A DNA stretch of 64,000 nt, from assembly GCA_025336725.1 (NCBI GenBank), contig GCA_025336725.1_3647.1; one strand, 5' to 3'. The number at the start of each line of letters is the position of its first letter. The first letter of the stretch is position 1. Of the stretch, positions 11,817 through 18,124 are shown piece by piece. The notes beneath the pieces were generated by a model, which saw only the letters and a list, made by a program, of their open reading frames with translations, was not told the DNA's origin and searched no databases. The translations under genes were made by a program, and so were the position numbers. Source of the DNA: Escherichia coli (GTDB lineage Bacteria; Pseudomonadota; Gammaproteobacteria; Enterobacterales; Enterobacteriaceae).

Positions 11817-13001
11817 TCAAGCTTTAGCCAAAATGGCGCTAAACTCTTCACCAAACTCTTTTACAATCTTCATCAGGTTTGGGTACGCTTTGATCAGTTG
11901 AGCAACGATCTTGTCACGACCTTTACCGATAAGCAAGGCATTTCCTAAGGCATTAGGTTTCATCATCGCCATAAAGACTGAGAATACAAAGTCTCGGTTC
12001 TCATCCTTGAAATTTTCCCAAAGGAAATCAAGGAAGTTTGCCACACAGCTGACGAGATCTTCGTCGGAGATACTTGCATTTTCCATCATGTTACGAATAG
12101 CGATACAACCTTCAGACCCCAGAATCCACAAGATGTCTGGCTGCTTAGGGCCTACATATTCTTTGCAGCCTCCTGCCATAATCCGACCGATTTCTGGCAA
12201 GTTTCGTTTCTTGGTGTGGTAGGTCCAAATTTCTACCGCTGCAGTGTGACCAATGGCACCTTGTAGAAGAACACGGGCCATAGCGTCAGAAATAATACCG
12301 CTGTCAAAATCGTGCAGGATGTCAGATGCAGCAACCCAAGAGCGCGGTGTAGCAAAAGATGGACAATTAATCTCAGCCATGGCCTCATAATTATCGATGG
12401 CTGATGGGACTCTTTTCAGATATCCAATTACCGAGGAGTGCACCCCATTAAGGAATGCATAGTCCTCAATAAACACCTCTGCACTGCTTGTAACTTCTAC
12501 AATGATAAAGCGGTTAGCTAGAGGAGCTTCGAGTGCCGAAAGAACAGCACCGTCTGTAGCACGGTTACCTGCAGCTACAAAAACAGAGCCTTTAGGAAAT
12601 GCATAGGTGCCGCACTTGTGGTCGAGCATAATTTGCATTGCAACCTTCTGCAGGTAGTTATCTGCATGAGTAAGCTCGTCTAGAAAGATAATTCCGCTCC
12701 AGTCCGGATCTGCAGGCCAAAATTCTGGAATTGCAAACACTGTACGTGTAGTTCCATCTGCCTCCACAGGGATAGGCAGTCCAGATAAGTCAGCAGGATC
12801 TTTATCTGACAACCGCACGTCAACCAGGTTGTCATCTCGCTCACCGAACATATTATCAGCAATCTGCTTCATCACCTGGCTCTTCCCCACGCCCATCGGT
12901 CCTAAAATCAGGACAGATCGGTTATGACGCTGGGCAAATTGAATAATAGCTGGCAACTCGCGGACAGTGATTTGACCACTTTCGAATACGTTTCTCGACA
13001 T
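11817..13001 (-). CDS. MoxR-like AAA+ ATPase (AAA_5 type)
   Basis: 394 aa; Walker A GPMGVGKS, Walker B IIFLDEL, sensor-like VAAGN. Confidence 0.7.
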   Translation of the reverse strand: MSRNVFESGQITVRELPAIIQFAQRHNRSVLILGPMGVGKSQVMKQIADNMFGERDDNLVDVRLSDKDPADLSGLPIPVEADGTTRTVFAIPEFWPADPDWSGIIFLDELTHADNYLQKVAMQIMLDHKCGTYAFPKGSVFVAAGNRATDGAVLSALEAPLANRFIIVEVTSSAEVFIEDYAFLNGVHSSVIGYLKRVPSAIDNYEAMAEINCPSFATPRSWVAASDILHDFDSGIISDAMARVLLQGAIGHTAAVEIWTYHTKKRNLPEIGRIMAGGCKEYVGPKQPDILWILGSEGCIAIRNMMENASISDEDLVSCVANFLDFLWENFKDENRDFVFSVFMAMMKPNALGNALLIGKGRDKIVAQLIKAYPNLMKIVKEFGEEFSAILAKA

Positions 13002-14323: not shown

Positions 14324-14602
14324 TTAGGCAACTGTCATTTTACATTCTTGAAATTTTAGCACAAGACGGTGATTGTGTCTAGTGTCTAAAAAGATTTTTT
14401 CAACCATCAGGCACACGGTGTAACCGTCCATCTTGTTGACAACAAAATCCCCAGGGTGAGGGAGAATGTCCCCAGGATTGGGGAAACATAACCCGCTCAA
14501 GAAGGCATCATCGGTGGTGGACCTGATGGATTTCCACACACTATCTGCCTGGACACTCTCACCAACATAATATACACTACCACATGCCTTCATCATAGTC
14601 AA
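14324..14602 (-). CDS. hypothetical protein
   Basis: 92 aa ORF; 4-nt overlap with upstream gene. Confidence 0.45.
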   Translation of the reverse strand: MTMMKACGSVYYVGESVQADSVWKSIRSTTDDAFLSGLCFPNPGDILPHPGDFVVNKMDGYTVCLMVEKIFLDTRHNHRLVLKFQECKMTVA

Positions 14603-15498
14603 ATCTCCGCGTAAATTAAACTGGAATCAGTATACTTCTTTAGTGGGTAAATATCCTGTCCATAGATGCCGTCATTAAACACCTCATCTACCCAAAGGCT
14701 ACACTTATATCCCATCATCTCTAAAACACCCATCTCTTCTTCGGTAAACTTATCACCGCTCTTGCAAGATGTCAACACCTCATTCTGTACTCTTGCTACC
14801 TCGAAGCGATTATTGGCAATATCGCTATTAGCGATCAAATACTCACCCAAAGGGTGTGCGGCATTAAAGATGCACAGTGGACGGTTGACGTAATAGTCTC
14901 CAGGTGTATAAAAATTATTGAGGTCTTTCACTAGAACATTCTTATCAGTCACTTCATTTATAACATCATGCATATCGCACATCTTTATATGTTTGAGGAT
15001 TCCATCCCCCATCACAAAATAAAAACTTGCTGAAACACTTTCGGCATAGATCTTACTAGATCCGTTGTAGTTGTATTTTACTCGGATGCTAACGGAGGTT
15101 TTTCCTGTCGCGTTAGCCATCATCCAAAGGAACGGAAGTTCAAACTTCTCCTCTGAGGAAACAAAAGGTGAAGTTGCCAGAGATCGGAAACCACCAGAGA
15201 AGTTGAAAGTTACAGAGCCGCTCCGGCGATATGATACCGCATATTCTACTTTTATATCGACATAGCCGTTGGAGTAAGTGTGGCCTCCATTATCCAGATA
15301 TGTCCACTTATCAGATCCGGATACCAGCCTACGCTCAATAACCTTCATTACTATAGGAATTAGCGGGTTGGTACAAACCGATTTTGAAGTAGCTTTATCA
15401 TCCAAAGCCTCGTAAATTGCAGAAAGGATATCACCTGCTGAGAGATTGGTTGTGATATCTTGTTTCCACCGAGTGCTAAAGCTGTTAAGATTTGCCAT
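14599..15498 (-). CDS. hypothetical protein, first gene of leftward early operon
   Basis: Start set to ATG 15498 (AGGAG RBS; MANLNSF..), because ORF-track GTG at 15540 lies upstream of the predicted -10 element. Confidence 0.5.
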   Translation of the reverse strand: MANLNSFSTRWKQDITTNLSAGDILSAIYEALDDKATSKSVCTNPLIPIVMKVIERRLVSGSDKWTYLDNGGHTYSNGYVDIKVEYAVSYRRSGSVTFNFSGGFRSLATSPFVSSEEKFELPFLWMMANATGKTSVSIRVKYNYNGSSKIYAESVSASFYFVMGDGILKHIKMCDMHDVINEVTDKNVLVKDLNNFYTPGDYYVNRPLCIFNAAHPLGEYLIANSDIANNRFEVARVQNEVLTSCKSGDKFTEEEMGVLEMMGYKCSLWVDEVFNDGIYGQDIYPLKKYTDSSLIYAEI

Positions 15499-15567: not shown

Positions 15568-15580
15568 TACGTTTTTGAGG

Positions 15581-15609
15581 TTGACATCTGTCGAGGCACT
15601 TGATAAGAT
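15581..15609 (+). promoter_or_regulatory. sigma70-like promoter, rightward
   Basis: TTGACA (15581-15586), 17-nt spacer, TAAGAT (15604-15609); back to back with the leftward promoter. Confidence 0.55.
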
Positions 15610-15640: not shown

Positions 15641-16630
15641 ATGAATCTTGAAAAATATTATACACCAGAAGAGTTAGAGCGCCTGCTCAAAAAATATAGA
15701 CGTAAACAGAATAATGCACGGAAACGAGATATAGAGTTCAACCTGTCATGGGAAGAATATCTCCTATTTGGTAAAAAACTTTTAGGAGAGGGAGTATGCG
15801 ACTATACCCTTATACCTTTCGACATGCACACAGATGAAAACGGACTGGGAAATCCTTTCTACCCATCTCTAGAGCGGATAGATGATGAAGGTCCTTATGC
15901 GGTTGATAACTGTTGTGTGGTAGGATTGAGATGCAACTCTCTAAAGGACTGTCTGGTAGATAAAAAGACCGCAGTCTTGATTAAAGACAAAACTGATCGA
16001 AAAATTGTCCAGCAGATGATGCTCCACCTGAGCGAAGAGCGTATGGAGAAATTGAAAGGTGATTACACTTTTGAAGATTTCATCTTGCAATATGGAACGG
16101 AAGAGGATAAACTAGCACTCTTTGACGAAGAATGGGAGGAAGATATGTCACCAATGCAGGATTTTAAAAACTTCATGGCTAATCGTGGAGCCAACAAGCA
16201 CATTTCTGACATTGTAAACGAGCCTGCAGTAGAGGAGATTGAAGAGATGACGCAACAGGCTTACGAAGAGGAAAAAGAGCCTCAAGGGGTCGAAGAAGAG
16301 CTTACAGAAGAGGTTCCTGCACTGCCTGACGATGTTGAGATTGCCAAAGCTTACACTTTCTATTGCCAGACGTTCTACGATGCAGGTATGAAAGTTGATC
16401 TGTCATTCAGCCAGTTTAAGAGCACATACATTCGAAAATGTTGTGCTTTAACTGGTGAACGTCTCGGTGCCGGACTTAAACCCCTATTAGTTACCGACTG
16501 GAACAAAGGTTTCACCAAAGGTAACTTCATGGTAGTATCTCCAATCATGGAGAAGGCTATGACAGACCTTATGAAGACCACTCGCATGACAATGACCGAG
16601 TTGGCTGGTATTTTCAAGCACGTTAAATAA
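15641..16630 (+). CDS. hypothetical acidic protein with two degenerate HNH-like halves
   Basis: Start moved to ATG 15641, downstream of promoter; central E/D-rich linker; ..SLERIDDEGPYAVDNCCVVGLRCNSLKD.. and ..CCALTGERLG..LVTDWNKGFTKGNFMVV.. Confidence 0.45.
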   Translation: MNLEKYYTPEELERLLKKYRRKQNNARKRDIEFNLSWEEYLLFGKKLLGEGVCDYTLIPFDMHTDENGLGNPFYPSLERIDDEGPYAVDNCCVVGLRCNSLKDCLVDKKTAVLIKDKTDRKIVQQMMLHLSEERMEKLKGDYTFEDFILQYGTEEDKLALFDEEWEEDMSPMQDFKNFMANRGANKHISDIVNEPAVEEIEEMTQQAYEEEKEPQGVEEELTEEVPALPDDVEIAKAYTFYCQTFYDAGMKVDLSFSQFKSTYIRKCCALTGERLGAGLKPLLVTDWNKGFTKGNFMVVSPIMEKAMTDLMKTTRMTMTELAGIFKHVK

Positions 16631-16642
16631 TGACAGGGGCCA

Positions 16643-18124
16643 ATGGCCCCTTCTGGAGTTTTAATGGATAGCAGAAGTTCAGAAATCATTACCGCACAAA
16701 AAGATGATGCCTTGCGAATGCTGCAGGCCGCTCGCATGTACCTTCTTGAAAAGCTGCCGTTTTATGGCACACTGTTGTCAGGGTTGCAGTTCGTAGAAAA
16801 CCACACATGGTGCTCCACTATGGCAACAGACCATAAACGCATCTACTACAGCCCTGAGTTCATTATGGGGTTGGCAGATGAGCGTAAAACCATTCTTAAA
16901 GCATCTCTGACTGACAAGCAGTTTGAGATGGCTGAGGTTTTCTATTCCCCAAAATCTGTGAAAGAGGTGGCCTTCCTTCTGTCACATGAGGTGGGGCATA
17001 TTATCTGTGATCATCTGGTCCGTGGTAAAAGCTTTGAGCCGGAACTGTTCAATATTGCTTGTGATCACGTTATCAACACAGGTCTTGTGGTTGACTTTAG
17101 CAAGCCTCCTTGTGTTTTCTTCCCGAAGGGGAAAAGCACTGAGTTCGTAAAAGGTAAGCCTTTTGGCTTCTTAGCTAATTGCTACTGCGACATGAAGTTT
17201 CATGGATGGATTGCTGAGAACGTCTATGCAGTTCTTGATAAACAAAGAGATCAGAATAGCGGTAAAAGTAAGAACGGTAAAGGCGAGAACTTCCAAGGAG
17301 ATAAACGACAAACCGATGATCACATGAGCGGGAACGGTGGCACCAGTGATGATCTTGGAAAGGCTATGGGGTATGATCAGCCGCAACCAGTAATCAGTCA
17401 ATCTGATAAAGATCAGGCCATGCAGGACTCTGGTGACATGTTGGAAGCAGCAATGCAAGCTTCAGGAGGTCGTTGCCCTGAGGCGGTGCGCGAGTTTGTC
17501 AAAAACAGAGGCAAGCCTGTAATCAACTATATAGATATTATTAAGCAACGTATGTTGTCTAAACGAAAGGCCGAGCTAACCTACAGAAAACCTGGTCGCC
17601 GATCTGGGTCTTTGACCACCACAATGCGAAAAGTTGGAGCTATAAACAAGAATCAACACATTATTGTTCCTGGTCGTAATCCGGAAAACACCATAGATAT
17701 TGTAGTGGCTTTGGACGTTTCTGGGTCGATCTCGCAAAGAACTTTAAAGAAAATGTTCAATGAGATCACCGGGTTGTGCAATTTGTATAAAGAGTTTAAG
17801 GTTACGATGTTCTGTTGGTCAACCGAGGTTGGAGAGGTTAAAGTATACACTCGCGGTAACATCGATGAGATGATTAACTATGAGGTCCACTCAACATGGG
17901 GCACAACAGCCGCCTGCGTGTTCGAGTATCTGGATGCTAACATACCGAATGCAAAAGATGTCATCGTCCTTACCGACCTCTACTTTGAGCACAACTTTGA
18001 ACAAAAGGCTGTTGACAACAAGTGGAAAAAGTACGATACTTTATGGGTTCTCACCGAAGGGTATAATAAAAATTATATCCCGAGCTTTGGGAAAACTGTG
18101 GAATTAATCGAGTATGCTAAGTAA
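16643..18124 (+). CDS. putative metallopeptidase / von Willebrand factor A domain protein
   Basis: 493 aa; HExxH motif (LLSHEVGHIICDH) in N-terminal half; VWA MIDAS-like DxSGS (IVVALDVSGSIS) in C-terminal half. Confidence 0.6.
   Translation: MAPSGVLMDSRSSEIITAQKDDALRMLQAARMYLLEKLPFYGTLLSGLQFVENHTWCSTMATDHKRIYYSPEFIMGLADERKTILKASLTDKQFEMAEVFYSPKSVKEVAFLLSHEVGHIICDHLVRGKSFEPELFNIACDHVINTGLVVDFSKPPCVFFPKGKSTEFVKGKPFGFLANCYCDMKFHGWIAENVYAVLDKQRDQNSGKSKNGKGENFQGDKRQTDDHMSGNGGTSDDLGKAMGYDQPQPVISQSDKDQAMQDSGDMLEAAMQASGGRCPEAVREFVKNRGKPVINYIDIIKQRMLSKRKAELTYRKPGRRSGSLTTTMRKVGAINKNQHIIVPGRNPENTIDIVVALDVSGSISQRTLKKMFNEITGLCNLYKEFKVTMFCWSTEVGEVKVYTRGNIDEMINYEVHSTWGTTAACVFEYLDANIPNAKDVIVLTDLYFEHNFEQKAVDNKWKKYDTLWVLTEGYNKNYIPSFGKTVELIEYAK

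Follow-up and report, generated by a model that had tools for sequence, protein, structure and literature searches.

PacI is an active nuclease in which a tyrosine of the omega loop replaces the catalytic histidine, and one aspartate and one asparagine hold a single metal (PMC5714182; PMC4081073). The phage T4 protein Srd is reported to attach to RNase E at the enzyme's catalytic N-terminal half and to hasten the decay of host mRNA (Qi et al. 2015, as cited in PMC13232886 and PMC4980113). Its gene lies in the T4 record next to the host-takeover genes modA, modB, srh and mrh, and a note in that record gives the sigma-decoy role of Srd as a postulate only. Gp11 of phage rV5 has been named a probable Srd homolog via PSI-BLAST, and a sigma-decoy role was speculated for it (PMC3606486). 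Here we analyse the gp11 ortholog at positions 15641-16630 (+ strand) of a 64,000-nucleotide stretch of an Escherichia coli assembly (GCA_025336725.1, contig GCA_025336725.1_3647.1; the whole stretch is called the window below), which encodes two related domains on one chain, the first of them with the active-site residues of PacI.

Between positions 15400 and 16800, over 100 rV5-like myoviruses of E. coli (Vequintavirus) match the window by megablast at 94-98% identity, phage ECP26 best of all (98.3%). The gene coincides exactly with a coding sequence (CDS) in the GenBank record of ECP26, its 329-amino-acid product is 100% identical over 329 residues to the ECP26 copy in tblastn, and it is present at full length in all 118 records matched by megablast. 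It is a real gene and the ortholog of rV5 gp11. The orthologs are recorded as "anti-sigma factor" (the usual label), "HNH endonuclease", "anti-termination protein", "Srd postulated decoy protein" or "hypothetical protein", and one metagenome record calls a homolog "type II restriction endonuclease". More than 100 phage genomes carry the gene under contradictory labels, which the structural description given here, itself testable, replaces.

Two homologous domains joined by an acidic spacer

The layout of the gene and its product is as follows; the structural assignments come from AlphaFold2 (AF2) models with their predicted local distance difference test (pLDDT) scores, from profile comparisons and from composition (pI, isoelectric point).

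15641 (ATG) to 16630 (TAA), + strand: CDS of 329 amino acids plus stop, ortholog of rV5 gp11, matching phrog_3118 at 5.9e-112
15668 to 15976, + strand: predicted N-terminal PacI-type His-Me finger domain, residues 10-112 (pLDDT about 92-97 except in loop 61-70; PacI profile match)
15977 to 16132, + strand: helical middle segment, residues 113-164 (AF2 helices 117-129, 132-138, 144-151 and 154-162), common to T4 Srd
16133 to 16327, + strand: disordered acidic spacer, residues 165-229, with 19 Asp/Glu versus 4 Lys/Arg (AF2 and composition)
16328 to 16627, + strand: degenerate second copy of the domain at the C-terminus, residues 230-329, with pI 9.0 and net charge +4 (comparison of the halves by hhalign, AF2, Foldseek)

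A preliminary description of this DNA had proposed two HNH-like halves flanking an acidic linker, and this architecture is borne out. A direct pairwise BLASTP comparison of the N and C halves gives no meaningful alignment (E 3.6), and hhalign with 13 sequences is marginal (probability 17.5%, P 0.0014), though deep profile comparison identifies the halves as homologous. With alignments of 160 family representatives hhalign reaches a probability of 97.7% (E 1.7e-12), and with independent subsets of 37 N and 32 C sequences it returns 97.9% (E 6.5e-13) over 81 columns. Independently of this, T4 Srd has only one such domain, at its N-terminus, and it aligns with both halves, in BLASTP (9e-8 for N and 5e-4 for C) as well as against the deep N and C profile hidden Markov models (4.6e-21 and 1.1e-11). 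The open reading frame (ORF) is therefore composed of two diverged homologous domains of about 100 amino acids each that arose by internal duplication, and in the architecture and homology taken as a whole we have high confidence.

One set of distant homologs shows 43-47% identity in the C half and 48-52% in the N half. The C half is thus diverging no faster, and on this comparison it is a selected, non-catalytic domain rather than a remnant in decay.

The segment between the domains behaves differently. Residues 141-229 contain 28 Asp/Glu versus 5 Lys/Arg (net charge -23, pI 4.05), the most acidic 30-residue stretch being 194-223, and in the full-length AF2 model pLDDT falls below 50 at residues 165-172 and 182-226, whereas in the domains on either side it is for the most part above 85. 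Between strains that share 96-100% identity in the domains, identity in the spacer drops to 67-72%, with insertions and deletions, and distant homologs largely lack the spacer. Because the median net charge of the inter-domain segment is -1 across 160 two-domain relatives versus -21 here, the acidity is a trait of the rV5 clade and not of the family.

That family is large. An exhaustive profile search against cluster representatives yields 11,740 at E<=0.001, 505 at E<=1e-10 and 77 at E<=1e-30, and 160 of the 175 best family sequences analysed have the N-C two-domain arrangement. Tandem multiplication of the domain recurs among its members: P0126 (852 amino acids) has four tandem N-type PacI-like copies, all with ER...Y...N...N; P0156 (827 amino acids) also has four N-type copies, with the Glu replaced in two and the helix Asn outside the aligned stretch in one; and P0168 has two.

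In BLAST, residues 8-143 of the protein align with T4 Srd (NP_049634) at 24% identity, and residues 4-158 of T4 Srd match positions 7-169 of the 287 in phrog_3118. The Srd family itself, phrog_1400, matches residues 13-194 at 3.4e-10, versus 5.9e-112 for phrog_3118, and the homology does not extend over the full length of Srd. By these sequence measures the protein belongs to a sister family of Srd that shares a domain with it and is not a strict Srd ortholog. The T4 Srd C-terminus was also considered as a truncated C domain; the pairing of NLSFIDKLKLKR with DLSFSQFKSTYIRK is plausible by eye, and we rejected it on a profile score below 0.

Fold and active-site residues

A search of PDB sequences with the N-domain profile gave a lone credible match, PacI (3LDY; E 9.8e-5), over PacI residues 31-122, a domain of about 95 amino acids; single-sequence phmmer and the C-domain profile gave only noise against PDB sequences. 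NCBIfam returned only a sub-threshold DUF406 match on the linker, which we disregarded. In the PHROG families the N half matches, in addition to Srd, "endonuclease" (3.1e-13) and "endonuclease VII" (2.5e-10), and related families carry the labels "HNH endonuclease", "endonuclease" and "endonuclease VII". A Foldseek search of the PDB with the full AF2 model returns almost only HNH nucleases (Cas9 HNH, PacI, McrA, Gme HNH, Cap5 and Hpy99I), PacI at the highest probability (0.98). For the C half by itself AF2 gives a pLDDT of 89 and a predicted template modelling score (pTM) of 0.77, and the best Foldseek match of this model is again PacI (probability 0.99; template modelling score 0.61, query-normalised; E 0.029), followed by other HNH proteins. 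In the models the beta-beta-alpha core is present in both halves, formed by strands 75-79 and 91-95 and helix 96-107 in the N half and by strands 282-284 and 296-298 and helix 301-314 in the C half. In the viral structure library BFVD, the Foldseek matches are phage proteins labelled "anti-sigma factor"/Srd, HNH endonucleases of phages, and proteins of the giant viruses Pandoravirus, Medusavirus, Fadolivirus and Pithovirus; the viral members of PacI group 20 in the His-Me classification come from giant viruses, Pandoravirus included (PMC5714182).

Both halves are thus predicted to adopt the His-Me (HNH) fold with PacI as the closest solved structure for each, a call that is made because several lines of sequence-profile and fold evidence, each weak to moderate, agree and not on any single score. 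The HNH-like fold anticipated in the preliminary description was accordingly detected by profile and by Foldseek, with PacI as the best match.

To compare the halves with PacI residue by residue, PacI positions were taken from the HMMER alignment, with residue numbers obtained by a count along the PacI chain. PMC5714182 and PMC4081073 name the tyrosine, one aspartate and one asparagine without numbers, so the roles given to Y100, D92 and N113 are our reading of that alignment. Conservation was taken from the 160 family representatives, many of them only 20-35% identical overall. The equivalents lie at:

15872 to 15946, + strand: motif equivalents E78 (15872-15874), R79 (15875-15877), D81, Y86 (15896-15898), N90 (15908-15910), N99 (15935-15937) and K102 (15944-15946)

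and correspond as follows:

PacI D92: N half E78 (Glu 87%, Asp 12%); T4 Srd E64; C half L283
PacI R93: N half R79 (100%); T4 Srd R65; C half V284
PacI D95: N half D81 (74%); T4 Srd D67; C half D286 (kept in 85%)
PacI Y100: N half Y86 (100%); T4 Srd Y72; C half F291
PacI N104: N half N90 (100%); T4 Srd N76; C half N295 (kept in 93%)
PacI N113: N half N99 (Asn 96%, His 3%); T4 Srd N85; C half E304
PacI K116: N half K102 (97%); T4 Srd R88; C half M307

The canonical catalytic histidine at the end of beta-strand 1 is found in neither half, its place being taken by R79 in the N half and by V284 in the C half. PacI shares an arginine at this position (R93). The Asn/His metal ligand of the core helix is present in the N half (N99) and absent from the C half (E304, a position that varies among Gln, Glu and Ala in the family). 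Likewise the PacI-type set of Tyr with Asp/Asn is complete in the N half (E78, Y86 and N99) and lost from the C half (L283, F291 and E304), which retains just D286 and N295, two structural-looking positions. As PacI is active without the same histidine, the N half is not a dead site by histidine loss alone, and the conservation pattern argues for a working N site, which we are slightly inclined to regard as functional.

Two earlier claims have to be divided on this evidence. The usual histidines were said to be partly replaced; they are indeed missing, and from both halves rather than in part. The protein was also suggested to be an inactivated nuclease, which fits the C half (L283, V284, F291, E304 and M307) and does not fit the N half, which keeps the PacI set at 87-100%. 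Given the residues it retains, calling the protein a dead decoy is probably wrong.

Function and competing explanations

The best explanation overall, to which we give roughly even chances, casts the protein as a relative of Srd that serves early host takeover, with one functional metal/phosphate/Tyr site and a non-catalytic partner domain. The gene is probably transcribed early, by the host RNA polymerase, from a promoter of sigma-70 type that opens a rightward operon. Its product is a PacI-type His-Me finger duplicated within one chain, from the histidine-free branch of the HNH fold. The analogy with PacI would make E78 and N99 the metal ligands, Y86 the base or nucleophile, and R79 and K102 the contacts to phosphate. 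The basic C copy would supply the second half of a nucleic-acid-binding surface, like the second subunit of the PacI homodimer, which would leave one chain as a tethered pseudo-dimer in which only one site is functional. Such pairing of the two domains is conceivable, and we place it somewhat below an even chance. The acidic disordered spacer would be a tether peculiar to this clade, and perhaps self-inhibitory as well. Early in infection the protein would engage, and probably cut or nick, host nucleic acid. By homology to Srd the likeliest pathway would be faster decay of host mRNA together with RNase E, and we hold this pathway to be doubtful, as it is extrapolated from a 24%-identical, partly homologous relative.

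Several points weigh against this explanation. The cysteine pairs of PacI (CxxC 63/66 and 109/112) are kept in neither half; C63/C66 and C109/C112 align with C53/T56 and G95/C98, of which only C53 is conserved in the family, and the Cys4 zinc motif is absent. Because these pairs are not kept, the scaffold differs, as far as its residues reveal, from that of every characterised PacI-like enzyme. Every Foldseek E-value against the PDB is above 0.001, and the full-length AF2 model has a pTM of only 0.50. No Pfam HNH model matches either the whole protein, for which Pfam returns nothing at E<=10, or the 37 N-domain sequences, which give only weak single-member matches to unrelated families. The homology to Srd is limited to the residues 8-143 aligned at 24%, and Srd has no C domain. 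Finally, in PMC13232886 and PMC4980113 the effect of Srd is reported as RNase E-dependent, and a nuclease activity of its own is not described there.

At the site of the first PacI cysteine pair both halves have a C-x-x-T/S motif, namely C53/T56 (nucleotides 15797-15808) and C268/T271 (nucleotides 16442-16453). The lone cysteine is near-invariant (98% in the N half, 91% in the C half), and the other cysteines are not kept.

If both halves were catalytically dead, the protein would be a non-enzymatic adaptor or decoy that binds DNA, RNA or protein, its linker perhaps mimicking nucleic acid, which resembles the DNA-binding or decoy role first proposed for it. The loss of the canonical histidine from both halves, the missing PacI cysteine pairs and the strongly acidic spacer (net -23) are all consistent with such a binder, as is T4 Srd, the one studied relative, which is described as acting by binding RNase E. 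However, equivalents of the PacI active site that are near-invariant in the N half across the family, and present in T4 Srd too, are hard to explain for a pure scaffold. The acidity that would make the linker a mimic is moreover confined to one clade, with a median linker charge of -1 in the family, and the reported action of T4 Srd is on RNase E and mRNA decay. A purely binding role is therefore unlikely in our judgement.

A second possibility takes the intact N site at face value and has the protein act as an autonomous DNA endonuclease, rare-cutting or nicking, in host DNA or phage DNA metabolism and independently of RNase E. PacI, the closest solved structure, is after all a DNA restriction enzyme, and the PHROG labels read "HNH endonuclease", "endonuclease" and "endonuclease VII". 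However, each chain has one active site, we found no recognition element or target, and the sole functional data in the wider family, those on T4 Srd, point to RNA decay. We would clearly bet against this alternative.

A role as an anti-sigma factor, as a decoy of sigma-70 or sigma-S, or as an anti-termination protein that redirects the host RNA polymerase, follows the GenBank labels and the Srd-like decoy role suggested via PSI-BLAST in the rV5 paper (PMC3606486). Residues 225-247 do briefly resemble sigma-70 residues 381-403 (LPDDVEIAKAYTFYCQTFYD versus LRLVISIAKKYTNRGLQFLD). However, no Pfam sigma-70 region is found at E<=10, the best BLASTP alignment to RpoD of E. coli has an E of 0.47, and hhalign returns a probability of 0.2%, so we rejected the IAKAYT/IAKKYT resemblance to RpoD 381-403 as being at chance level. 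The decoy role of T4 Srd is itself a postulate, and the experiments cited in PMC13232886 and PMC4980113 found stimulation of RNase E instead. The "anti-sigma factor"/sigma-decoy label is thus without sequence support, and we consider this role very improbable. Chance resemblances of the kind seen at residues 225-247 may have fed the idea of a "similarity with rpoD" for Srd-like proteins.

That the gene is a free-standing selfish homing HNH endonuclease is the least credible explanation of all, since its HNH-superfamily fold in a phage genome and the several records labelled HNH endonuclease are set against a gene that keeps the same locus and operon head from rV5-like phages to PVP-SE1 (about 39% identity), diverges with its genome, and is carried full length by every one of the 118 megablast records instead of being patchy as is typical of homing genes.

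Returning to the host-takeover factor with one functional site, a broader version of it would make the whole Srd superfamily, T4 Srd included, active Tyr-dependent His-Me nucleases. We rate this extension as distinctly unlikely. If it were true, the "RNase E-stimulating" effect would be the phage protein's own catalysis, for example a first cut or end-processing that hands transcripts to RNase E, and each rV5-type protein would combine one live site and one dead partner domain in a single-chain pseudo-dimer built on a zinc-less PacI fold, a class of phage host-shutoff nuclease not recognised before.

The gene, its loose link to Srd and the PHROG family label HNH endonuclease were already known. 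In the literature searched we found neither the internal duplication, nor the PacI-type signature shared with T4 Srd, nor the zinc-less scaffold, nor the tandem of an active and a dead copy, nor any account of Srd as an HNH or His-Me protein; the paper on His-Me classification does not mention Srd (PMC5714182). T4 Srd, among the few phage proteins that manipulate the RNA degradosome, would thereby be linked to the rare histidine-free PacI branch with its motif intact.

Genomic setting and comparison with known systems

The gene heads a rightward block of small genes, which a 100-bp divergent-promoter region divides from a leftward block. The signals around the gene are:

15581 to 15609, + strand: sigma-70-like promoter TTGACA-17-TAAGAT with TG extension, matching the consensus at 10 of 12 positions
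15567 to 15539, - strand: divergent promoter TTGACT-17-TATAGT, likewise matching at 10 of 12
16635 to 16651, no strand assigned: perfect GC-rich hairpin GGGGCC-AAT-GGCCCC in the 33-nucleotide gap before the next gene, called terminator-like on the - strand by the scan

Both promoters are consensus matches and suggestive only, the number of promoter-like sequences in the region being that expected from shuffling. In the ORF listing the frame of the gene runs back to a TTG at 15575, which lies upstream of the -10 box (15604-15609). In the Salmonella phage PVP-SE1 the ortholog, whose protein is about 39% identical, has an annotated promoter at the same relative place upstream, and the locus and the position at the operon head are kept. 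The gene is thus a core gene passed on vertically from rV5-like phages to PVP-SE1, and probably an early one. The hairpin may be a terminator, an attenuator, or a transcript-end or RNA-processing signal, and whether it belongs to this gene is uncertain. An ATG inside it (16643) opens the next ORF in the ORF listing, and the GenBank start of the next gene is 16664.

The product of that next gene (16664-18124, + strand) joins a putative metallopeptidase of the DUF2201_N family, with an HEVGH motif, to a VWA-like DUF2201 domain (Pfam 5e-28 and 2.7e-11). The gene too is named "anti-sigma factor" in ECP26 and several other records, a label that looks carried over from the gene studied here. A gene at about 11817-13001 (- strand) is annotated as a MoxR ATPase in ECP26 and PVP-SE1 and has here a weak AAA_14 Pfam match below the cut-off. 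MoxR ATPases usually act with VWA proteins. The MoxR gene may therefore have its partner in the metallopeptidase-VWA gene, which lies on the opposite strand at a distance of about 3.7 kb; PVP-SE1 keeps this pairing. We considered whether the gene studied here forms one system with these two and rejected it, as the adjacency, kept inside Vequintavirinae, is missing at the homolog loci of the unrelated Stephanstirmvirinae and Plateaulakevirus, where the homologs are surrounded by other small hypothetical genes, without MoxR or VWA neighbours. Many records name the divergent upstream gene (14599-15498, - strand) "putative alpha 1-3 fucosyltransferase", a label unsupported here, since Pfam gives no match for the gene at E<=0.001. 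Sixteen "Campylobacter phage" records (for example MG065644, MG065662 and MG065658) are 92-97% identical in this region to E. coli rV5-like phages, which is surprising for phages of so remote a host; the hosts may be mislabelled or the records contaminated.

Among the systems to which the protein can be compared, T4 endonuclease VII and the classical HNH proteins (PF02945, PF01844 and PF13392) share the superfamily fold, reflected in the PHROG matches at 2.5e-10 and 3.1e-13; in contrast to them, the protein has no Pfam match, no catalytic histidine and no CxxC...CxxC zinc site. Pseudo-dimeric single-chain nucleases consist of tandem homologous domains of which only one keeps the catalytic residues. 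The likeness to these is an analogy of design only, without homology. T4 Srd is nearer, as both proteins come from lytic coliphages, the N domain and the helices that follow it are homologous, and the active-site-like residues are the same; it differs in having one domain, an unrelated C-terminal part and no acidic spacer, at 24% identity.

PacI (3LDY/3M7K; His-Me group 20, Jablonska et al. 2017) remains the most informative comparison, with sequence similarity at the profile level only. PacI is a bacterial restriction enzyme and a homodimer of identical subunits, whereas the protein studied here comes from what would be a phage early gene, lacks the PacI cysteine pairs, and carries on one chain, around an acidic disordered spacer, two diverged copies of which one is catalytically stripped. 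What the two have in common is the beta-beta-alpha fold, the absence of the catalytic histidine, and the motif D/E-R-x-D...Y...N...N-x-x-K, including the tyrosine that stands in the histidine's place.

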